Assembly: GCA_963665755.1 (NCBI GenBank)
Contig: OY762445.1
Coordinates: 3,686,590 to 3,750,589 of the forward strand
Origin: a bacterium
GTDB taxonomy: Bacteria; JAAXHH01
Direction: 5' to 3'
Length of the DNA: 64,000 nt
Translations under genes and position numbers: made by a program
The notes under the pieces: model-generated
Seen by the model: the letters and a program-made list of their open reading frames with translations, nothing else
Databases searched by the model: none
Told to the model about the DNA's origin: nothing
In this document: positions 3,894-59,472 of the stretch, piece by piece
How positions within the stretch are numbered: position 1 is the first letter of the stretch
Layout: each line of letters begins with the position of its first letter

Positions 3894-4853
3894 ATGGTGT
3901 CTGAAGACGTCCTCAGGAGGCAGTTGGAATACGTTCTGCACGGTACCAGCTTCGACCTGGGCAGCAAATTCGAGGGCAAGGTCAGGGACAACTACAGTCT
4001 GGAAGGGAAGCGGATCATCGTGACCACCGATCGAATTTCCGCCTTCGACAGGGTGTTGTGCGCCCTTCCCTTCAAGGGCCAGGTCATCAACCAGACTGCG
4101 GCCTTCTGGTTCGAGCGGACCCGCCAGATAATCGAGAACCACCTGATCGACGTGCCGGATCCGAATGTACTTGTGGCCAGGGAGTGCCGGCTGATTCCCG
4201 TCGAGATGGTCGTCCGCGGCTACCTGACCGGCGTGACTACCACATCGGCGTGGTACCACTATAAACATGGGAATCGCAGTTTCTGCGGACACGCCCTGCC
4301 GGAGGGCATGAAGAAGAACCAGGCCTTCGACCAACCCATCATAACCCCTTCCACCAAGCCGGTACAGGGCGGCCATGACGAGTCCATCTCGGGGGAGGAG
4401 GTGCTTCGAAGAGGTCTCGTGGAAGAACCGGTGTATCGTGAAATGGAGCGAGCGGCCCTGGAACTGTTCGCATTCGGTACGGAAAAGGCCGCCGCCAATA
4501 ATCTCATCCTGGTGGATACCAAGTATGAGTTCGGTCTTTTTGAGGACCGGGTCATGCTGATCGACGAGATCCACACGCCAGACTCTTCCCGGTTCTGGGT
4601 AAAGAACACCTATCAGGATCTTTTCGAACGGGGCGAGGAGCCGGAAAAACTGGACAAGGAATTCGTCCGTGGATGGCTCGCGGACCGCGGTTTTCGTGGT
4701 GACGGTTCCATACCCCCTATCCCGGACGAGGTCAAAATTGAAGCTGCCCGCCGTTACATTAAGGCCTACGAGATGATAACCGCCAGAACCTTCGAAGCCC
4801 GAAACGAGGACGTGTTGCAGCGGATCACCCACCGGCTGCGGAACCCGAACTAG
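3894..4853 (+). CDS. purC: Phosphoribosylaminoimidazole-succinocarboxamide synthase (SAICAR synthetase), long form
   Basis: 319 aa, full-length similarity to PurC (SAICAR synthetase fold). Confidence 0.9.
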   Translation: MVSEDVLRRQLEYVLHGTSFDLGSKFEGKVRDNYSLEGKRIIVTTDRISAFDRVLCALPFKGQVINQTAAFWFERTRQIIENHLIDVPDPNVLVARECRLIPVEMVVRGYLTGVTTTSAWYHYKHGNRSFCGHALPEGMKKNQAFDQPIITPSTKPVQGGHDESISGEEVLRRGLVEEPVYREMERAALELFAFGTEKAAANNLILVDTKYEFGLFEDRVMLIDEIHTPDSSRFWVKNTYQDLFERGEEPEKLDKEFVRGWLADRGFRGDGSIPPIPDEVKIEAARRYIKAYEMITARTFEARNEDVLQRITHRLRNPN

Positions 4854-5066
4854 CAGACCACAGGACACGCTCGGAACGGATGCCATCGTCCGGGATCGTC
4901 CACCGGCTTTGGAACCCGAACTAGCTGACCACAGGATACGCTCGGAACGGATGCCATCGTCCGGGATCGTCCACCGGCTTTGGAACCCGAACTAGCTGAC
5001 CACAGGATACGCTCGGAACGGATGCCATCGTCCGGGATCGTCCACCGGCTTTGGAACCCGAACTAG
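4854..5066. repeat. Tandem direct repeat, 3 x 71 bp, copying the purC 3' end and its downstream sequence
   Basis: Units at 4854-4924, 4925-4995 and 4996-5066. Units 2 and 3 are identical; unit 1 differs at 2 positions. Each unit ends in CCACCGGCTTTGGAACCCGAACTAG, nearly identical to the last 25 nt of purC (CCACCGGCTGCGGAACCCGAACTAG). Confidence 0.9.
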
Positions 5067-5080
5067 CTGATCCCTCTCGT

Positions 5081-8000
5081 ATGCGCCTGTCAACCCTTCT
5101 TGAAATCTCGGAAAAGTCCCCCGTCGTAAAGCGTTACCTCGCGTTGGCCGCCGATACCGCCTGCTCCGCGCGGGTATCGGGGCTGGCGGGCTCTTCGCGC
5201 TCCCTTCTGCTCGCGCACGCGCATAACAAACGAAACGGTGCGACGCTGGTCATCGTGGAGGACACGGCCTCCGCCGAGGAGATGTTCGAGGATGTCTCCA
5301 GTCTACTGGATCCGGGGGACGTGGCGCTGTTCCCCCCCTGGGAGGTGCTGCCCTACGACCAGGTCTCTCCGCCGGGCGACCTGTCGGGACGGCGTCTCGG
5401 CGCGCTGCACGAACTGATGAAGAACAGGCCGCTGTTCGTCGTCGCCACGGTCAGGGCCGTCATGCAGCGCACCATGCCGCCGGCCGTGCTTGCCGGCTCC
5501 ATCCTTCACGTCGCCGCGGGCGCTACAATCTCGTTGAGCGATCTTACTGCGCGGTGCAACCGGCTCGGCTACGAGCGGACGGACATGGTCCAGGCGCCTG
5601 GCCACTTCAGCGTGCGGGGCGGTATCGTGGATGTTTTCCCTCACGGGATGGAACAGCCGTGCAGAATCGAGTTCTTCGGTGACGAAGTGGAATCGATTCG
5701 GCTGTTTGACATCTACACGCAGCGGTCGTCTCGGAACATCCCGGAACTGACGGTGCTCCCGAACAGGGAATTGATCGACGAGCCTGAAACGCGTGCCGAT
5801 GTGGTCAGACGGGTCAGGCAGGCGGCCGAATCGTTTTCGACCGACGCGTCCGAACTGGTCTCTCACATCGAGGACGGAGGTCTGTTCGAAGGCAGCGAAC
5901 GCTACCTTCCCTATTTTCATCCCTCCTCCGCCACCATCATGAATTACCTGCCGGACCACACGCTGATCGTCCGGTGCGAACCCGATGAATTGGAGCGCGA
6001 AGCGGAATCATTCGCGGAGGAATACGAAAACACCCACCATCGTCGAACAGAGGCGGGTGACCTGGTTCCCGTGCCGGAAGAAGCGATCCTGGGCTGGCAT
6101 GACATAAAGGAGGACTCGGCCTACTACGGCACGATGGAAATGGTGCGCGGCGCGCGCGCGTCCAAGGGCTGGCTCGCCGTCGGTACCGAGGCATCGGGCG
6201 TGTACCACGGGGCGATGGACGTCCTGAAGTCCCGGCTGGAGGAATGGAGTACGGACAACGCCCGGGTCGTGGTGGTTTGCGACAACGAAGGACAGGCGGA
6301 AAGACTGCGGGAGATCCTGGGTCCGGACGCCCCGGAGATCGAAATGGCCGTCGGACCGATGCACGCCGGGTTTGTACTTCCCGACTTGCCTCTCGTGGTA
6401 CTGACCGACGCGGAGATCTTCAATCGGTACCGCAGACGCCGTCGCAAGGTCTTCAAGGAAGGCGTGGTGATCGAGGATTTCACCAGCCTCAAAGAAGGGG
6501 ACTTCGTCGTCCACATCGACCACGGCATCGGCCGGTACGTAGGGTTGAAGCGAATCTCCGTGGACGACCGGGAACGGGACTGCCTGACCCTGATCTACGC
6601 CGCAGACGACCGGGTTTTCATCCCCATCGAGCAGTTGCACCGGGTTCAGAAGTACATCGGTTCAGATGGCGAGGTGCCCGCGTTGTCGAAACTGGGTGGG
6701 CGAGCCTGGGAACAGGCCAAGTCGCGCACCCGAAAGGCGGTCAGGGATATCGCCGAAGACCTGGTCAAGCTCTACGCGGCCCGGCAGGCCAGCCCGGGAC
6801 ACGCCTTCTCGGCCGACACTCCCTGGCAGACGGAAATGGAAGACTCCTTCATCTACGAGGATACCCCCGACCAGGAGTTGGCGACATCGGACGTGAAGTC
6901 GGACATGGAGAAATCGGTGCCCATGGACCGATTGATCTGCGGGGACGTGGGGTACGGGAAGACGGAAGTGGCGATTCGCGCCGCATTCAAGGCGGTGCTG
7001 GACGGGAAACAGGTCGCCGTGCTGGCCCCGACCACCATCCTGGCCCAGCAGCACCTGACCACCTTCTCCGAGCGGCTCGCGGACTACCCGGTAAACATAC
7101 GCATGCTGAGCCGCTTCGTTCCGGCGCAGGAACAGAAAACCGTTCTGTCCGGGCTCAGGAACGGCGACGTGGATGTCGTCATCGGCACGCACCGCCTCAT
7201 TTCCGCCGACATGGAATTTCATGACATGGGCCTGCTCGTCGTCGACGAAGAACAGCGGTTCGGCGTAGCCCACAAGGAGCGGCTCAAGCAGTTGAAGACC
7301 ACCGTGGACGTCATGACCATGACCGCCACGCCCATACCGCGGACGCTGCACATGTCGCTGGTTTCCGCCCGCGACATGTCTCTCATCACCACCCCGCCGA
7401 GGGACCGGTTGCCGGTGCACACCGAGGTGGTGCGTTTCAACGAGGATGTGATCTGCGAGGCGATCATGCGGGAGGTGGACCGGGGCGGCCAGGTCTTTTT
7501 CGTTCACAACCGGGTACAATCCATTGAGGCGGTCGCGGAATTCCTGCGTCGCCTCCTGCCCCAGGTATCTTTCGTCGTGGGCCATGGGCAGATGCAGGAG
7601 CGGGAACTGGAACAGGTGATGATCGACTTTCTGGATCAAAAGTACGATTGCCTCGTGTCCACGATGATCATCGAATCCGGACTGGATATTCCCAATGTGA
7701 ACACCATCCTGGTCAATCGCGCGGACCGGTTCGGACTTGCCCAGTTGTACCAGCTCCGGGGCCGCGTGGGGAGGTCGAATCACCGGGCCTACGCGTACCT
7801 GATGATCCCCGCCGCCGGAACGGTCACGCCCGACGCCCGCAAGCGGCTGGCCGTGATCTCCGAGTACACCGCGCTCGGATCGGGATTTCATATCGCCATG
7901 AGGGACCTCGAGATCCGTGGCGCGGGCAACCTGCTGGGCACGGAGCAGCACGGGTTCATATCCTCGATCGGGTTCGATCTATACTGCCGTCTGTTGAAGG

Positions 8001-8482
8001 AGGCGATGCAGGACCTCAAGGGCGAGACGCGCGAAGAGACCCACGAGGCCGAAATCGAGCTGCAGGTGAGCGCCTTCATTCCCGATGACTATATCGCCGA
8101 TCGAAAGCTCAAGGTCGGCTTCTACCAACGGCTTTCCCGGGTAGAAGAGGAAGGGGACGTCGTCTCGCTGCGGGAGGAGATGCAGGACCGGTTCGGTCGG
8201 CTTCCCGATCCGGTTCGCGTCCTTTTCGACCTGGTATCCATCCGGCAGATTGCGGCCCGGATCGGCTTGAAGCAGCTCAGCGTACGCGGTAATGAAATGG
8301 CCCTGACCTACAGGAACGGTCTCTACCCTTCGAGGGACAGGATCGCGAACGTGACGGACGATCCCGCACTGGACATCGAATTTCCCCACGGTGACGGGTT
8401 CCGGATCAGGGCGGGACTGACCGGAAAATCGGAAGCTGAACGGGTCGAAACAGCTAAAAACCTGTTGCTTAAACTGCTGTGA
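5081..8482 (+). CDS. mfd: Transcription-repair coupling factor
   Basis: About 1133 aa. UvrB-homology N-terminus, helicase Walker A (GDVGYGKTEVA) and DEEQRFGV motifs, and the TRCF C-terminal domain. Start moved to the ATG at 5081; the ORF track used an upstream TTG inside the repeat. Confidence 0.93.
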   Translation: MRLSTLLEISEKSPVVKRYLALAADTACSARVSGLAGSSRSLLLAHAHNKRNGATLVIVEDTASAEEMFEDVSSLLDPGDVALFPPWEVLPYDQVSPPGDLSGRRLGALHELMKNRPLFVVATVRAVMQRTMPPAVLAGSILHVAAGATISLSDLTARCNRLGYERTDMVQAPGHFSVRGGIVDVFPHGMEQPCRIEFFGDEVESIRLFDIYTQRSSRNIPELTVLPNRELIDEPETRADVVRRVRQAAESFSTDASELVSHIEDGGLFEGSERYLPYFHPSSATIMNYLPDHTLIVRCEPDELEREAESFAEEYENTHHRRTEAGDLVPVPEEAILGWHDIKEDSAYYGTMEMVRGARASKGWLAVGTEASGVYHGAMDVLKSRLEEWSTDNARVVVVCDNEGQAERLREILGPDAPEIEMAVGPMHAGFVLPDLPLVVLTDAEIFNRYRRRRRKVFKEGVVIEDFTSLKEGDFVVHIDHGIGRYVGLKRISVDDRERDCLTLIYAADDRVFIPIEQLHRVQKYIGSDGEVPALSKLGGRAWEQAKSRTRKAVRDIAEDLVKLYAARQASPGHAFSADTPWQTEMEDSFIYEDTPDQELATSDVKSDMEKSVPMDRLICGDVGYGKTEVAIRAAFKAVLDGKQVAVLAPTTILAQQHLTTFSERLADYPVNIRMLSRFVPAQEQKTVLSGLRNGDVDVVIGTHRLISADMEFHDMGLLVVDEEQRFGVAHKERLKQLKTTVDVMTMTATPIPRTLHMSLVSARDMSLITTPPRDRLPVHTEVVRFNEDVICEAIMREVDRGGQVFFVHNRVQSIEAVAEFLRRLLPQVSFVVGHGQMQERELEQVMIDFLDQKYDCLVSTMIIESGLDIPNVNTILVNRADRFGLAQLYQLRGRVGRSNHRAYAYLMIPAAGTVTPDARKRLAVISEYTALGSGFHIAMRDLEIRGAGNLLGTEQHGFISSIGFDLYCRLLKEAMQDLKGETREETHEAEIELQVSAFIPDDYIADRKLKVGFYQRLSRVEEEGDVVSLREEMQDRFGRLPDPVRVLFDLVSIRQIAARIGLKQLSVRGNEMALTYRNGLYPSRDRIANVTDDPALDIEFPHGDGFRIRAGLTGKSEAERVETAKNLLLKLL

Positions 8483-8545
8483 TTTGTTAATGATACCTGC
8501 CCGGATACTGAAATCGGATCCGCCCGCTAGAGAAGGAAGATCAGC

Positions 8546-9412
8546 ATGAAACCCGCGTTTTTTTACGCCGTTCTTCTGAATGCGGCTCTTCTCTTCACGC
8601 AGTGCCAGTTCCTTACGATCGCCGAAGACCCCGACACGGTTGTCGTGCGGGTGAACCAGTCCACGCTGACGGTCGATGAACTGGAAGCCGAACTGGATGA
8701 CGCGGCGCTGCCTGCCGCCACCCTGCAAATGAGAAGGGACTGGGTATCGGACTGGATCCGGACCGAACTGCTCTACCAGGAAGCCCTGCGGCGGGATTTC
8801 GATGGCGACGGGAAGACGCTCCGGGAATTGGACCGGATGCGCAGAGATCACCTGGCCAATGTCGTGCTGGAACACGTCATCACAGATTCGTCGATGGTGG
8901 TTACCGATGAAGAGGTGGCGGATTATTTCGAGGCCAACCGGAAGGAGTTCGTTTACCACGAACCGGAACTCAGGCTCTCGGTTATCGTACTACCTGACGA
9001 GGCCACGGCCCGACAGGTCCGCGGCCAGTTGTCGCGCCGCAGCAGTACCTTCGAGGAACTGGCGCGAACGCGATCCATACACCACTCCTCGACCGATGGC
9101 GGAGATCTGGGATTCTTTAAAAGGGCGGATATCAGCGACATTTCCGTGCAGGAAATCGTGTTTTCCCTCAGCGTCGGCCAGGTTTCCCGGCCGGTCCTTT
9201 CAGAGTCCGGCTCGTTCATCTTCAGGGTCGCGGAACGTCGCGCGGCGGGCGCTCTGCCGCCGTTGGATGAAGTCCGGGACGAGATCGTCAACAGGATGCT
9301 GCGGGACCGGCGCCGCGAACTGGTCAGACGGTTCGTGGATTCGCTGAGGCAATCGTCCGACGTGGAAATCTTCAATGGGAACCTGATGCGGTCGGAACCC
9401 GACGCGCAATAG
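8546..9412 (+). CDS. Periplasmic peptidyl-prolyl cis-trans isomerase, single parvulin domain (SurA/PrsA-like)
   Basis: Signal peptide, a SurA-N-like chaperone region, and a parvulin motif GGDLGFF. Confidence 0.75.
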   Translation: MKPAFFYAVLLNAALLFTQCQFLTIAEDPDTVVVRVNQSTLTVDELEAELDDAALPAATLQMRRDWVSDWIRTELLYQEALRRDFDGDGKTLRELDRMRRDHLANVVLEHVITDSSMVVTDEEVADYFEANRKEFVYHEPELRLSVIVLPDEATARQVRGQLSRRSSTFEELARTRSIHHSSTDGGDLGFFKRADISDISVQEIVFSLSVGQVSRPVLSESGSFIFRVAERRAAGALPPLDEVRDEIVNRMLRDRRRELVRRFVDSLRQSSDVEIFNGNLMRSEPDAQ

Positions 9413-9429
9413 ACAGGTAACGGAGGAAC

Positions 9430-10746
9430 ATGAACGTGCGCTCGATTACCCGCCATTTCCCGCTGGTTCTGATCCTGGCCGTGGTCGTGGCAGGTCGTCC
9501 GGTTCTCGGACAGCAGTTGGTGGACTATGTCGTGGCCGTCGTGGACAATGAGATCATTCTCTATTCCGACGTGGTTGAAGCGGTAAAGATGTATAGAATG
9601 CAACAACCGGAGCAGGAACCCGAAGACCTCCCGGGTCATATGCTGGACGACATGATCGATACGCGCGTCGTGCTCGCCTATGCGCGCCGGGACAGTGTCA
9701 GGGTACCCGCCGAACAGATAAACGGCGCGGTCCGCCAGATCATCGACCAGTACACGGAACAACTCGGTTCCGATGAAGCGCTGGAACAACTGGTGACGAA
9801 TTCCGGAATGACCATGCGGGACTGGAACCGGCTGCTCAGGCGGCAGAAGGAGGAGGAACTTCTGCAGCGTAAGCTCGAGGAAGAACGTTTCGGCGAAGTC
9901 CGGGTAACCGGCCTGGAAGTCGCCCGGTACTATGAGACCCATTACGACAGCATTCCGTCGAATCCCGTCAAACTCGACTTGAGCCACATCATGATCTCCT
10001 CACGTCCGGACCCGGAAGTCGTGGCCGCGTTGAATGCACGGACCGAGGAGATCCGGCGCCGCATTACGGACGGGGAGGACTTCGGCGAAATGGCACGGCG
10101 GTATTCGGAAGATCTGAACAGCGCCACGAACGGCGGAGACCTGGGGTTCTTTACACGCGGCACGTTCATGGCCGAATTCGAAGAAGCGGCATTCGCCCTT
10201 GAAACGGGCGAAATCAGCCCCCCGGTGCGGACGGACGTGGGCCTGCATATCATCAAGCTGGAAGAAAGGAAGGAAGACCAGATCCGCGTGCGTCACATTC
10301 TGGTCCAGATTCCGAAGACTGATGAAGACGATCATCGTGCGCTGGAGACGATTTCCGTACTGCGTCAGCGGATCCTCGACGGCGACGAGTCCTTTTCCGA
10401 GGCCGCCACCAAGTACTCGGAAGACCTCGCCTCCGCTTCAGAAGGAGGCCATATCGGTGAGTTCATGCTCGATCAGTTGCTGCCCCAATACCAGGCCGCG
10501 CTGGACACCATATCCGTCAACGAGATGACCGAACCGATCGGGGTGGTGGACCAGGGTAACAGTTCATACCACATCATGATGCTGAACGACCGAACCGGCG
10601 GCGACAAGCTTACCCTGGACGAACATTTCCAGCAAATCACATATCTTGCCAAACAGGCCAAGTGGAATCGGGAAAGGGAACGCTGGCTCGGGGACCTCAG
10701 GCGCGAGTTGTATATCGATGAACGTGGTCTGGAAGCCCTGCCCTGA
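9430..10746 (+). CDS. surA: Chaperone SurA (two parvulin domains)
   Basis: Signal peptide and two parvulin domains (GGDLGFF and GGHIGEF). The architecture is typical of a Gram-negative outer-membrane-protein chaperone. Confidence 0.85.
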   Translation: MNVRSITRHFPLVLILAVVVAGRPVLGQQLVDYVVAVVDNEIILYSDVVEAVKMYRMQQPEQEPEDLPGHMLDDMIDTRVVLAYARRDSVRVPAEQINGAVRQIIDQYTEQLGSDEALEQLVTNSGMTMRDWNRLLRRQKEEELLQRKLEEERFGEVRVTGLEVARYYETHYDSIPSNPVKLDLSHIMISSRPDPEVVAALNARTEEIRRRITDGEDFGEMARRYSEDLNSATNGGDLGFFTRGTFMAEFEEAAFALETGEISPPVRTDVGLHIIKLEERKEDQIRVRHILVQIPKTDEDDHRALETISVLRQRILDGDESFSEAATKYSEDLASASEGGHIGEFMLDQLLPQYQAALDTISVNEMTEPIGVVDQGNSSYHIMMLNDRTGGDKLTLDEHFQQITYLAKQAKWNRERERWLGDLRRELYIDERGLEALP

Positions 10747-42576: not shown

Positions 42577-42672
42577 CTTGCCCGGGTGTCGGCGCCCGCC
42601 GGAATATCCCGGTGAAGCGCGGGGTTGTCTGTCGAAGCTACGGCGATCACCCGGGATCAAAGAGGGAACCGC

Positions 42673-42726
42673 GGCCAGGGCGATCGGGGCGGCCAGGGCG
42701 ATCGGGGCGGCCAGGGCGATCGGGGC
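42673..42726. repeat. Perfect tandem repeat, 3 x 18 bp (GGCCAGGGCGATCGGGGC)
   Basis: Lies in the 175-bp spacer between the convergent paralogous membrane-protein genes. Confidence 0.9.
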
Positions 42727-42751
42727 GGACTGGTGTACAGGGCGGTCCCGG

Positions 42752-56550: not shown

Positions 56551-56780
56551 ACCTCTCCCTTCGGCGTATTGACTGTTTTAAGCCATGCAAGATGTCGCTG
56601 GAACGATTTCGGCTCATCTCCATGCAGATTCGGGATTTGTTGATGAAGACTCACGCTTCGAACATGGTGGTATATAAACAAATGCATTCGGGAATAGTAG
56701 TTTTGTACTTTAATTGTTGACGGTTCACCCCTGCCGTGTTATCTTGGCGTCTCCATTCACTATACCCCAGGAGACGCACC

Positions 56781-58061
56781 ATGACAACCAATTTTGCAAA
56801 CCGCACCTTGTACCACGGCGACAATCTTGCTTTCATGCGGGCCATGAACAGCGAATCCGTGGACCTGATCGCCACGGATCCGCCGTTCAACAAGGGGCGC
56901 GATTTTCACGCCACGCCCGACAGCCTGGCCGCCGGCGCGAAGTTTCAAGATCGATGGTCATGGGAGCGCGATGTACATGAAGAATGGGTGGATCAGATCG
57001 CCGACGATTACCCCCACGTCCTGAACGTCATCCAGGGTTCGCGGTCCAGTTACGGCGATGACATGGGCGCGTTCCTGTGCTTCATGGCCGTGCGACTGAT
57101 TGCCATGCGGCGGCTTTTGAAGCCCACAGGCTCCATTTACCTCCACTGTGACCCTACGGCCTCACACTACTTGAAGGAACTCATGGACGCGGTGTTCGGA
57201 CGCAGGATGTTCAGGAATGAAATTGTGTGGTGCTATGGTTCCGGCGGAGCAAGCAAACAGCACTTTTCGAGAAAACACGACCTTATCCTGTGGTATTCGC
57301 GGGGGGGGGGGGGGGGCTGGACCTTCAACGTCGATGAAATCCGCGAACCCTATTCGTCTCCACACAAATCAATGACGCCCAAGATAATAGGGAACAAGTC
57401 ATATCAAAAGATGCACCCGCTGGGACGGATTCCTTTCGACTGGTGGCAGGTCCCCATAATGACCAACAGTGATAAGAATCGCACGGGCTGGCCGACACAA
57501 AAGCCCCTGCCGTTGTACGCCCGGATCATTAAGGCGTCCAGCAACCCTGGCGACGTGGTCCTGGATCCTTTCGCCGGATGCGCGACGACGCTTGTTGCCG
57601 CCGAGAAACTGGGGCGGCAATGGGTCGGGATCGACATATGGGAAAAGGCGGCCGACGTGGTCCGCGCCAGGCTGGAAAACGAGGTGGGGCTGTTCGGAGA
57701 CGTGACGTTTACCGACCGGCCCCCGGAGCGGACCGACGACGGAGACACGGCCGCCCCGTTCCTGCGGGTCAAAGAACGGGTGGCCGAACCCGACGGCCCC
57801 AGGTGGAGCAGGGCGAAGATGTACGAGTATTTGTTGACGCAGCACGGCCCCCGGTGCCAGGGATGCGACCGGACGTTTGACGATCCCCGTTACCTGGAAT
57901 TGGACCACAACACGCCGCGGGCCGATGGCGGCATAAACCACGTTAGCAACCGCATCCTGCTTTGCGGTCCGTGCAACCGCCTGAAATCCAACACGTACAC
58001 GTTATCGGGGCTTAGACGGGAGAACAAGCGGCGGGGGTTCATGAAGGGAGGGACAGCATGA
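56781..58061 (+). CDS. DNA methyltransferase (beta-class N6/N4, DPPF motif) fused to a C-terminal HNH endonuclease domain
   Basis: TDPPFN (motif IV), LDPFAGCATT (motif I), and a C-terminal HNH motif (LELDHNTPRADGG...NRILLCGPCNRLKSN). RBS AGGAGA lies before the ATG at 56781. Confidence 0.8.
   Translation: MTTNFANRTLYHGDNLAFMRAMNSESVDLIATDPPFNKGRDFHATPDSLAAGAKFQDRWSWERDVHEEWVDQIADDYPHVLNVIQGSRSSYGDDMGAFLCFMAVRLIAMRRLLKPTGSIYLHCDPTASHYLKELMDAVFGRRMFRNEIVWCYGSGGASKQHFSRKHDLILWYSRGGGGGWTFNVDEIREPYSSPHKSMTPKIIGNKSYQKMHPLGRIPFDWWQVPIMTNSDKNRTGWPTQKPLPLYARIIKASSNPGDVVLDPFAGCATTLVAAEKLGRQWVGIDIWEKAADVVRARLENEVGLFGDVTFTDRPPERTDDGDTAAPFLRVKERVAEPDGPRWSRAKMYEYLLTQHGPRCQGCDRTFDDPRYLELDHNTPRADGGINHVSNRILLCGPCNRLKSNTYTLSGLRRENKRRGFMKGGTA
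57301..57316 (+). repeat. Homopolymeric G16 tract inside the methyltransferase-HNH coding sequence (encodes GGGGG)
   Basis: Sixteen consecutive G at 57301-57316. The current length keeps the frame (YSRGGGGGWTF); adding or removing one G would truncate the protein. Confidence 0.9.
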
Positions 58062-58123
58062 ACGATCGCATCGAACGAAAACGCGACGGTGACGATTTCC
58101 AGATATTCCCGGATGATGACGAA

Positions 58124-58522
58124 TCAGAAGACGTTGAAGAAAGCGAAGACGACCAGACAGATCAGACCGAGGAAGAAAGCCAGTAACGCGAGGCGGTTAA
58201 CCCACGTCGTGAAACCTGTTGCCCATCCATCCTTCTTGACGTTGTTCCGGACGTTGGCCGTGGTCTTCTTGTAGCCCATTTCGCTGAACACGTACGATGA
58301 GACTGTCGCGGCCAGGGTAATGACCCAGCAGAATGCAAACCACGTAAACAGGTTTTCGTACTGTGGTTCAGGGTTCATGGGGATATGGATTTTGACATAG
58401 AGCGTAATCGGTACTCCCAGGGCACAGATTTTCAGCAGGGCCTGATCCAGACTGGATCGTTGCTTTTCAGTTTTCTCACGGAGGATCGTTAAGACTTCAT
58501 TTTTTTCAACAGCGTTCATCAT
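58124..58522 (-). CDS. Small membrane protein with two transmembrane helices (hypothetical)
   Basis: Two strongly hydrophobic C-terminal helices. No recognizable family. Confidence 0.4.
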   Translation of the reverse strand: MMNAVEKNEVLTILREKTEKQRSSLDQALLKICALGVPITLYVKIHIPMNPEPQYENLFTWFAFCWVITLAATVSSYVFSEMGYKKTTANVRNNVKKDGWATGFTTWVNRLALLAFFLGLICLVVFAFFNVF

Positions 58523-58530
58523 GGTACCTC

Positions 58531-59193
58531 CTACGCGAACAGTGCATCCATGAAGGAATCCCACGGCCTGGCAACGGAGTCGTCGGTATTGACCGCACTC
58601 CTAATAAAACCCAGGATACCCTTGCCTGTCAAGTCTTCCGCGACCTGGGCGACCACGTTGCCGTCACGCTCCACCGCCCCGATGATCGGGGTCTTGTCGG
58701 TACCACGGCCACGCTTAGAGGTGTTGCCGCCTTCCGGCTCATCGTCCCGCTTGTTGCGTTTGCGGGGCTTGCCGCCGACATACGTTTCATCGGCTTCGAT
58801 AATCCCGGCCAGCATGGGGGCCTGGTCGGATGCCATACCAGCACGGATACGCTGGAGCATGAACCACGCCGTTTTCTGATTCAGGTCCAGGTCGCGGGCC
58901 AGTTGCGGACTGGATATGGACTTCTTGGCATTCACCACCAGGGCAATCGCCGCAAACCACTTCGGCAGGGGGATGTGGGTACCCTGCATGATCGTGCCGG
59001 ACAGGACGTTGAATGAGGACTTGCAATCGTGGCAGTTCCAACGCCCGACACGGCTCTTGAGGTTCGACCGGCGGGCCTTTTCCGTACTGCCGCACAGGGG
59101 ACAGTAGGCGCCGTTTGCAAAGCGGATCGCTTCCAAGTGGTCGATACAGGCTTCTTGTGTCGGGAAGCGGCGGATGGTTTCAAAGAGGTTCAT
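58531..59193 (-). pseudogene. IS1595-family transposase, N-terminal zinc-ribbon/HTH part only (DDE domain missing)
   Basis: MNLFETIRRFPTQEACIDHLEAIRFANGAYCPLCGS...CHDCKSSF is the characteristic IS1595 N-terminus. The ORF stops at about 220 aa, against about 320 aa for an intact transposase. Confidence 0.7.
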
Positions 59194-59472
59194 CGTGTAA
59201 CTCCGTAGAGGGTAAGGGGTTGTTGTCCTTATCTACCCTCAATATACCTCATACGGGACACAATGTCAAGTACAAAACTACTTATTCCGAATGCATTGCA
59301 GTAATCAATGGGAGAATATAGCGTTAATCCGGATAGCACCGATCAGGTTCAGTAGGAGCGAATCCCGGCGATTCATCGGTTCGCGGGTCGGTTTCGAGTC
59401 GCAGACCGCATTGGGCCCCGCGTCGTTATGAACGTTTTCGACCGCAGAAAAACACATACCGCAGGTAAGCAC

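Follow-up and report, generated by a model that had tools for sequence, protein, structure and literature searches.

A non-autonomous IS1595-family element with a methyltransferase-HNH nuclease gene: its empty site, second copy and sister elements

Results

Insertion of a 2601-bp unit at a single site

We analyzed a 64,000-nt stretch of DNA from a bacterium of the GTDB lineage Bacteria; JAAXHH01 (positions 3,686,590 to 3,750,589 of contig OY762445.1, assembly GCA_963665755.1), hereafter called the window. Positions 56689-59289 of the window are best explained as a 2601-bp, non-autonomous copy of a transporter insertion sequence (tIS) of the IS1595 family, a reading to which we give a probability of roughly 0.8. 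The segment holds four genes, encoding a DNA methyltransferase (MTase) fused to an HNH nuclease, a small acidic peptide, a small membrane protein and an internally deleted transposase. An earlier interpretation made from the letters of the window (the sequence-only reading) had described an IS1595-like element with passenger genes inside terminal repeats, and the domains, the repeats and the empty site presented below bear this out.

The insertion is documented by an empty site in L211, a circular metagenome-assembled contig of 3.85 Mb, which has the same neighbourhood without the insert. In this contig the MR/MLE-enolase and SDR genes are 313 bp apart. Positions 160-4870 of L211 align with window positions 64000-59290 at 99.1% identity, and positions 4863-10703 align with window positions 56688-50851 at 97.8% identity. 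The two alignments overlap by exactly L211 4863-4870, which reads AATGCATT, and since they share only this one copy, the inserted DNA corresponds to window 56689-59289. All four genes are lacking together at the empty site, as expected for a transporter IS, in which the genes move with the repeats. Thus, all 2601 bp were inserted as one unit at one AATGCATT between the SDR and MR/MLE-enolase genes, duplicating 8 bp. The occupied site is also present in L226, a 3,917,282-bp contig that is 99.96% identical to the window over 10.5 kb, and in the short-read contig L212.

The boundaries of the element were further analyzed from its repeats. The sequence-only reading had reported a 30-bp inverted repeat with one indel-type difference between its arms. 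The pair is real and unique in the window, its inner 23-mer having 2 matches in the 64 kb as compared to 0.00 expected from 100 dinucleotide shuffles. The arms are located at 56681-56710 and 59268-59297, the right one having been placed one base off (59269-59298), and they are complementary at 27 of 30 positions in the ungapped alignment; with a compensating indel pair, they read as in that description. Each 30-nt arm is composed of a true terminal inverted repeat of 22 nt (CGGGAATAGTAGTTTTGTACTT and CGGAATAAGTAGTTTTGTACTT, alike at 19 of 22 positions) and an outer 8 bp, AATGCATT, representing a direct target-site duplication. As AATGCATT is palindromic, it reads as 8 further bases of inverted repeat. 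The repeats directly abut the duplication on both sides, in agreement with the short, imperfect terminal repeats of the IS1595 family. Relatives agree on the ends: those of L122 and L123 begin CGGAATTAGTAG, and the homology between L121 and the window begins at the same C.

The view that the repeats are chance matches, or palindromes of the REP or terminator type around ordinary chromosomal genes with no mobile unit, has next to no probability. The outer 8 bp are indeed palindromic, palindromes of the ATGCAT type are common, and a 14-mer from the repeat, scanned in genome contigs, gave at least 120 chance matches in unrelated taxa and was uninformative. However, the repeat was not expected from the shuffles and occurs nowhere else in the window, precisely 2601 bp and one 8-mer are missing from the empty site, and the same ends flank a second copy of the element at another locus with a different 8-bp duplication. 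An identity of the repeats as REP elements or terminators, which the sequence-only reading had itself raised as a possible objection together with the occurrence of these genes outside any repeats, is ruled out by the empty site; the genes of the second copy and of the related locus L210 are also bracketed by terminal repeats. A search of the window against Rfam gave no match, and no tRNA genes were found as integration targets.

The interval had also been described as AT-richer than its neighbours, which is true but modest. The GC content is 0.567 in the element as compared to 0.61-0.62 in the flanks, which corresponds to the 17th percentile among windows of 2601 nt. The low GC content is concentrated at the ends of the element (0.44-0.49) and in the two small genes (0.48-0.50).

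Table 1. Features of the element, with positions in the 64-kb window
Feature	Position	Strand	Basis
Target-site duplication, left copy, AATGCATT	56681..56688		Single copy at L211 4863-4870; the two L211 BLAST segments overlap by these 8 bp
Cargo-proximal terminal inverted repeat, 22 nt, CGGGAATAGTAGTTTTGTACTT	56689..56710	+	Homology to copy 2 (left part of L207, L214) and to L122/L123 begins at its C
Promoter-like site of the MTase-HNH gene, with extended TG, TTGACG-17-TATCTT	56717..56745	+	Consensus scan, 9/12; consensus match only
Beta-class DNA methyltransferase with C-terminal HNH nuclease, 426 aa	56781..58061	+	PF01555, 9.7e-48; PF01844, 7.3e-09; homologs; AlphaFold model
G16 homopolymer inside the MTase gene, in frame, encoding GGGGG	57301..57316	+	Only homopolymer of at least 9 in the 64-kb window
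Small ORF for an acidic product, 42 aa; its start and the MTase-HNH stop overlap (ATGA)	58058..58186	+	Conserved in L210; no family match
Gene for a small membrane protein, 131-132 aa; 8 nt downstream of the stop of the transposase gene, GGAGG before the start	58124..58522	-	Hydrophobicity; homologs linked to the element family
IS1595-family transposase gene with internal deletion, 220 aa in place of 296	58531..59193	-	PF12760; PF12762 positions 1-78/153; NF033547 2-136/215; alignment to P0001/P0249
Junction of the 228-bp in-frame deletion, between CTCCG(T/A) microhomologies	58573..58574	-	DNA alignment with L121 and L214
Promoter-like site for the transposase gene, TTGACA-17-TATATT; -35 abuts the terminal repeat	59241..59269	-	Consensus scan, 11/12; TTGACA also follows the repeat in relatives
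Transposase-proximal terminal inverted repeat, 22 nt, CGGAATAAGTAGTTTTGTACTT as read on the - strand	59268..59289	-	Repeat comparison; ends of relatives
Target-site duplication, right copy, AATGCATT	59290..59297		Empty-site comparison with L211

The transposase gene carries an internal deletion

The transposase had been taken for a stub consisting only of the N-terminal zinc-ribbon and helix-turn-helix (HTH) portion, with the DDE domain lost. The loss of function stands, and the extent of the loss does not. The zinc ribbon characteristic of the family is kept (PF12760, Zn_ribbon_IS1595, 8.9e-10, residues 11-58), and NF050000 also matched. [quoted passage not shown] The 220-aa product also retains the natural C-terminal 13 residues, ARPWDSFMDALFA.

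Comparison with relatives located the lesion exactly. P0001 (296 aa), the closest database protein, is identical to the window transposase over the first 207 residues except for one substitution. At the DNA level, the window is without positions 901-1128 of L121, a segment of 228 bp flanked by the microhomologies CTCCGT and CTCCGA. The product loses the 76 aa from LITDEY to NHRSD and then resumes in frame, and the lost stretch contains two residues of the DDE triad, the second D in ITDEY and the E in NTIEGFW. Judged by these residues, the window transposase is a catalytically dead in-frame internal deletion and not an N-terminal stub. The element belongs to the IS1595 family by descent, and the window copy is defective.

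The remaining 663 nt differ from the second copy by 12 synonymous and 4 non-synonymous nucleotide differences, which suggests that purifying selection acted on the allele until not long before the deletion. The promoter-like site of the transposase gene is a strong one by consensus. Its TTGACA follows directly after the repeat, and this is also the case in L121, L122 and L216. In a common arrangement of insertion sequences, binding of the transposase at the end of the element would also repress its own promoter; the predicted site abutting the repeat fits such a self-repressing arrangement.

It is improbable that the 220-aa protein has been kept for a function of its own, binding DNA to inhibit or regulate transposition. 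In favour of such a function, the deletion is in frame and spares the zinc ribbon, the HTH and the C-terminus, the predicted promoter abutting the repeat is intact, and the same 220-aa allele is on record in three contigs. However, an in-frame outcome has a chance of one in three, and the transposase of L210 is plainly a pseudogene beside an intact cargo gene. We also considered the 76-aa in-frame deletion as a recurrent, selected form and rejected it: the remaining short homologs of the clade carry various truncations and frameshifts, and not the same deletion.

A second copy with an intact transposase

The proposed checks for further copies of the repeat, for full-length transposases and for 8-bp duplications at other loci each gave a positive result. 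A second copy of the element (copy 2) has the same ends, in the form of perfect 22-bp repeats (CGGAAATAGTAGTTTTGTACTT), and its own 8-bp duplication, AATGGGAA. Its transposase-proximal end is located in a different flank in L121 and L214 (...GATTA AATGGGAA CGGAAATAGTAG...), and its other end is found in the left part of scaffold L207 (...CTACTATTTCCG AATGGGAA TGGTAC...). In L121 and L214, copy 2 contains an intact 296-aa transposase (P0249), the same membrane protein gene, the same 42-aa ORF and the HNH part. P0249 differs from the window transposase by 3 aa over the shared 220, and both P0001 and P0249 have the full DDE_Tnp_IS1595 catalytic domain. The ends of the window copy match the perfect repeat of copy 2 at 21 of 22 positions (cargo-proximal repeat) and at 20 of 22. 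The unit has transposed whole at least twice, with an 8-bp duplication each time (AATGCATT at the window locus and AATGGGAA for copy 2).

An exact-sequence look-up showed that the 220-aa and the 296-aa transposases are both on record for the 3,917,282-bp contig, and thus the cognate enzyme appears to be available in trans. The sequence-only reading had offered an immobile element and transposition machinery supplied in trans as alternatives, which are not exclusive. The window copy is non-autonomous, and its mobilisation in trans by the copy-2 transposase is possible.

Comparison of window 57563-58557 with L214 and L207 showed copies 1 and 2, the former being that of the window, to be 100% identical over approximately 1 kb from the membrane protein gene to the HNH part. 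The block is bordered on one side by a transposase segment with 2.6% divergence and on the other by the target recognition domain (TRD) of the MTase, which is unalignable. This mosaic suggests recombination or TRD swapping between the copies. The single nucleotide polymorphism (SNP) between the window and L226, at 57563, falls at the boundary of the identical block.

L207 and L213 were considered as evidence of an intact transposase at the window locus and were rejected, the scaffold being chimeric with an N gap inside the MTase gene. The flank and the repeat of L207 are those of locus 1, its transposase agrees with copy 2 at all 15 SNPs, and its left part consists of the copy-2 end and duplication. 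As a chimera, L207 is unusable for dating the deletion and does not give the order of insertion and deletion at the locus.

The cargo gene encodes a methyltransferase-HNH fusion

The fusion of a beta-class MTase to an HNH nuclease, noticed in the sequence-only reading, was confirmed by profile matches to both domains (Table 1). The search for homologs gave at least 8000 matches, nearly all from metagenomes, and the best 120 of these are 60-79% identical to the query. In 72 aligned homologs (66-80% identical), the N-terminal catalytic half and the C-terminal HNH domain are almost invariant. The invariant residues include C359-x2-C362, D375-H376, N390 and C395-x2-C398-N399 of the HNH domain, as in an intact nuclease, and the MTase motifs DPPF and TQKP...DPFxGxxT for catalysis and binding of S-adenosylmethionine. 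The central TRD occurs in several unrelated versions.

The AlphaFold model of the protein has a pLDDT of 79.8, with lower confidence in the HNH part. The first ~300 residues of the model match the beta-class N6-adenine MTases CcrM, M.BceJIV, RsrI and MboIIA. The 'HNH' matches in PDB are HNH domains of Cas9d and represent similarity at the domain level only. PADLOC returned only the generic models MTase_II/III and no catalogued defence system, and the plasmid and phage collections contained MTase-only relatives and no full-length fusion.

A poly-G tract of possibly variable length inside the cargo gene

Compared with the homologs, the MTase has two additional glycines owing to the G16 tract inside its gene. 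Over 10,557 bp, one substitution distinguishes L226 from the window apart from the tract, which is G14 instead of G16, and the shorter tract splits the MTase-HNH gene into ORFs of 184 and 229 aa, as expected of a frame-shifting repeat. The short-read contigs L208 and L209 end inside the tract, at C17 and C15, respectively. The lengths across assemblies are thus 14, at least 15, 16 and at least 17, values for which homopolymer miscalls are possible from assemblies alone. Copy 2 has a separate G10/11 tract at SSERGGG, at another position of the MTase, and the gene is split there in L214. The pattern fits slipped-strand phase variation, and slippage in the G16 tract is the probable means by which the enzyme is switched on and off.

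There is a smaller though substantial chance that the length differences are artefacts of sequencing or assembly, in which case the tract would be fixed and the gene constitutively on (or off). The G14 and G16 lengths come from apparently long-read metagenome assemblies, where homopolymer length is error-prone, and the short-read contigs merely stop within the tract. Against this, at least 14 G are present in every assembly examined (two long-contig genomes, L208 and L209), which argues that the tract is real, and copy 2 has its own tract with a split gene. Homopolymer tracts of this length are hypermutable in other bacteria, which also favours slippage.

Sister elements and the spread of the MTase-HNH family

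All close transposase relatives examined have, in the corresponding slot and in the same orientation, a gene for an MTase or MTase-nuclease that is convergent to the transposase gene. Next to P0002 (91% identical to the window transposase) is a Type IIG-like gene of 649 aa with HSDR_N_2, N6_Mtase and Eco57I domains, and the element is bracketed by 32-nt repeats. P0004 (82%) is associated with an N6_Mtase gene of 672/788 aa in which no nuclease domain was detected, and P0054 (71%) with a 401-aa gene for a beta-class MTase (N6_N4_Mtase) with an Mrr-like PD-(D/E)XK domain. The P0054 element is found on 8 contigs, including L216-L221 from the same samples, and the longest of the contigs with P0054 is likewise of 3,917,282 bp. 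The population appears to hold several MTase-nuclease transposons. The four-gene layout of the window is seen in L210 at 70-78% nucleotide identity, with a frameshifted transposase gene and an intact cargo gene.

The relative at L122 5905-9485, also present in L123, is 3.6 kb long and consists of a transposase gene, a 157-aa ORF and an Eco57I-type gene of 649 aa within 32-nt repeats. It is located between two paralogous genes of 623/625 aa with ECF-sigma domains.

The MTase-HNH family is also associated with a second transposase lineage. In L125 and L126, MTase-HNH genes ~72% identical to that of the window are located directly behind IS1595 transposase genes whose products are only 34-36% identical to P0001. 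These elements have their own repeats and clean 8-bp duplications, CAAGGAAA in L125 and CATGCAAA in L126; the 8-bp target-site duplication of the IS1595 family is thus seen in the window, copy 2, L125 and L126. The ends of the window element (CGGnnTT) and the DDE+K signature, with K at +7 from E in P0001, suggest a tentative resemblance to the ISNha5 subgroup, as do the GGnnATTAT ends of L125 and L126 to ISNwi1. In the metagenome scan, an IS1595 transposase gene is found beside the MTase-HNH gene at 14 of ~38 family-level metagenomic loci.

Other arrangements of the family were also observed. At L124 439-4493, an 80%-identical MTase-HNH gene and a 197-aa ORF are located between two IS3-family (rve) transposase genes, which resembles a composite transposon and would represent a different vehicle for this cargo. 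In L126, another IS1595-family transposase gene (27% identical), unrelated to the first, is found at 9042-10001, 2.5 kb from the MTase-HNH element. Solitary MTase-HNH genes (L136, L140, L146, L160, L166 and others) have short intergenic gaps, no transposase gene and no flanking repeats. We considered such genes as transposase-less mini-elements and found no convincing flanking inverted repeats in the 8 loci checked.

By analogy, the cargo is probably a single-chain restriction-modification (RM) enzyme, an N6-adenine (m6A) MTase whose TRD would also direct the HNH nuclease. We favour this reading because sister elements carry MTase-nuclease fusions in this slot, the residues of HNH are strongly conserved and the TRDs are swapped between copies.

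It is rather unlikely that the protein is instead an epigenetic 'orphan' methyltransferase, that is, a phase-variable regulator of the phasevarion type in which the HNH domain has another role or no nuclease role. Such a function would be consistent with the lack of a separate restriction gene, a fold closest to the CcrM-type N6-adenine MTases, the many solitary chromosomal copies and a long G tract in the ORF with frame-changing length differences between near-identical genomes. However, the zinc and catalytic motifs of HNH are invariant in the 72 homologs, which speaks for a nuclease under selection. Of the three sister elements examined, two have in this slot an MTase fused to a different nuclease-type domain, and an exchange of TRDs between halves that are otherwise invariant is typical of RM enzymes that shift their specificity.

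It is very improbable that the MTase-HNH protein belongs to the mobility machinery rather than to the cargo, for example by cutting the second strand as TnsA does beside TnsB in Tn7, or by homing. Three observations point in this direction. Genes 72% identical accompany two IS1595 lineages with transposases only 34-36% identical; in L125, L126 and ~9 metagenome loci the gene lies 0-80 bp behind the transposase gene and is encoded on the same strand; and solitary copies are located between housekeeping genes without repeats, like free-standing homing genes. However, no MTase or HNH domain is present in the Pfam lists of the best 120 transposase matches, and sister elements replace MTase-HNH by unrelated MTase or MTase-nuclease proteins. 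The duplications are clean 8-bp ones, as expected from a DDE transposase alone, and IS1595-family elements are described with a single transposase gene (PMC8101967), suggesting that no such partner is needed.

Small accessory genes and other repeats

The acidic ORF is conserved in L210 as a 50-aa product (IERK.DDFQIFPD...ESEDVEESED), also outside the overlap with the membrane protein gene. The membrane protein, previously described as having two helices, is indeed a membrane protein, with 2-3 helices and not exactly two. It has three hydrophobic segments (aa 29-47, 58-79 and 107-132), the last one being very hydrophobic. Only 4 homologs were found among 5.8 billion clusters, and 3 of these are linked to the element family: that of L210 by inspection of the locus, and two others by apparent co-occurrence with homologs of the transposase or of MTase-HNH. 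Neither protein matched Pfam, PADLOC, PHROGs or NCBIfam, and no homology to them was found in the small accessory ORFs of L123, L124 and L126. An immunity-like or regulatory role for the membrane protein and the acidic peptide is a guess.

Two tandem repeats were observed elsewhere in the window. A 71-bp repeat in 3.5 copies with 96% identity is located at 4822-5070, between a 360-aa ORF on the - strand and the start of a 1143-aa ORF on the + strand. A perfect 18-bp repeat in 3.2 copies, GCGGCCAGGGCGATCGGG, is located at 42671-42728.

Discussion

We have described a 2601-bp element that inserted as a unit into a bacterial chromosome. By inference from the family (PMC8101967), its DDE transposase would bind the terminal repeats via the zinc-ribbon and HTH domains in the N-terminus and would make staggered 8-bp cuts in the target. 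The window copy would no longer be self-moving, and the copy-2 transposase could move it in trans. The putative RM cargo might protect the host as a defence system, or it might addict the host to the element by post-segregational killing. Either effect would explain why the cargo gene remains intact while the transposases of the clade decay repeatedly, as seen in the deletion in the window, the frameshifts in L210 and the many truncated homologs.

Several observations weigh against parts of this explanation. The two ends of the window copy mismatch each other at 3 of 22 positions, and the relative with the Type IIG cargo (L122/L123) is without a target-site duplication, for which recombination between copies or insertion into a duplicated region may be the reason. 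About 24 of the ~38 MTase-HNH loci are without a transposase gene, being solitary among housekeeping genes or near genes for a resolvase, a plasmid Rep, Mrr or another MTase; the MTase-HNH enzyme is not dependent on the IS. There is no separate restriction gene in the element, the structure searches with MTase-HNH gave no solved structure containing the fusion, and the literature searched held no paper specific to MTase-HNH fusions or to IS1595 elements with MTase cargo, so that the RM reading rests on analogy with the sister cargos. The contrast between G14 and G16 comes from apparently long-read metagenome assemblies and may be homopolymer miscalling.

On a broader scale, the data provide an unusually complete natural record of one transposition system, with an occupied site, an empty site, an intact second copy, the exact lesion and sister elements that exchange cargo. 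One clade of IS1595 is a vehicle for MTase or MTase-nuclease genes in uncultured bacteria that are probably Gemmatimonadota-like. The names given to near-identical SDR proteins, and to the best named matches of the transposase and the MTase, point to a host of this kind, from environmental and partly marine metagenomes. The MTase-HNH family is abundant and without biochemical description. It may be a source of new specificities, and it could account for differences in methylomes between strains and for barriers to gene flow in these populations. As a tentative extension, MTase-HNH fusions might constitute a large, uncharacterised class of single-chain RM enzymes that pairs repeatedly with at least two deep IS1595 lineages, swaps TRDs and is toggled by poly-G tracts, yielding a self-stabilising 'RM transposon' in which the cargo outlives the transposase.

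The long G tract in the MTase ORF and the frame-changing length differences between near-identical genomes are shared with phasevarion MTases. In contrast to these, the host is an uncultured bacterium and not a host-adapted pathogen, the MTase is fused to a nuclease and carried by an IS, and the switching is inferred from tract lengths. The MTase-HNH protein is also similar to Type IIG/IIC enzymes of the Eco57I/MmeI type in having MTase, TRD and nuclease in one chain and in TRD swapping between conserved halves, and an Eco57I-type enzyme fills the same slot in the sister element L122/L123. However, Type IIG enzymes have an N-terminal PD-(D/E)XK domain and a gamma-class MTase, whereas the protein studied here, known from its sequence, has a beta-class MTase followed by a C-terminal HNH domain. 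As in non-autonomous derivatives mobilised in trans, following the logic of miniature inverted-repeat transposable elements, the ends are intact, the transposase is defective and an intact cognate transposase appears to be present elsewhere in the genome. Unlike these, the element has retained the full cargo as well as most of its transposase gene, and is not a miniature.

The MTase-HNH family, its pairing with two IS1595 lineages and the G-tract polymorphism appear to be undescribed in the literature searched. The sequence-only reading had also suggested a new cargo-carrying element; elements of this kind are already in the literature, as tIS (PMC11891212) and as RM units (PMC2853133). Siguier, Gagnevin and Chandler (2009), as cited in PMC11891212 and PMC4611040, defined the transporter ISs within the IS1595 family; the cited example, ISNha5, carries transcription regulators. 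The element resembles these in having one transposase with a zinc ribbon and a DDE_Tnp_IS1595 domain, short terminal repeats, an 8-bp duplication and passengers inside the repeats, and it differs in its passenger set of beta-class MTase-HNH, membrane protein and acidic peptide, which was not found described in the literature searched. Furuta, Abe and Kobayashi (2010; PMC2853133) described transposon-like RM units that have inverted repeats and 8-bp duplications and for which a sister genome shows the empty site. The closest of these, in N. gonorrhoeae NCCP11945, has a Type IIG RM homolog and an S homolog together with a degenerate COG3677 transposase, and its repeats are 26 bp long. The present element is likewise compact, with inverted repeats, an 8-bp duplication with an empty site and RM-type cargo beside a decayed transposase of the IS1/IS1595 type. 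It differs in that the cargo is an HNH domain fused to a beta-class MTase, and in that an intact sister copy and the exact transposase lesion have been identified. Thus, the element fits the descriptions of both tIS and RM units and opens no new category of mobile element.

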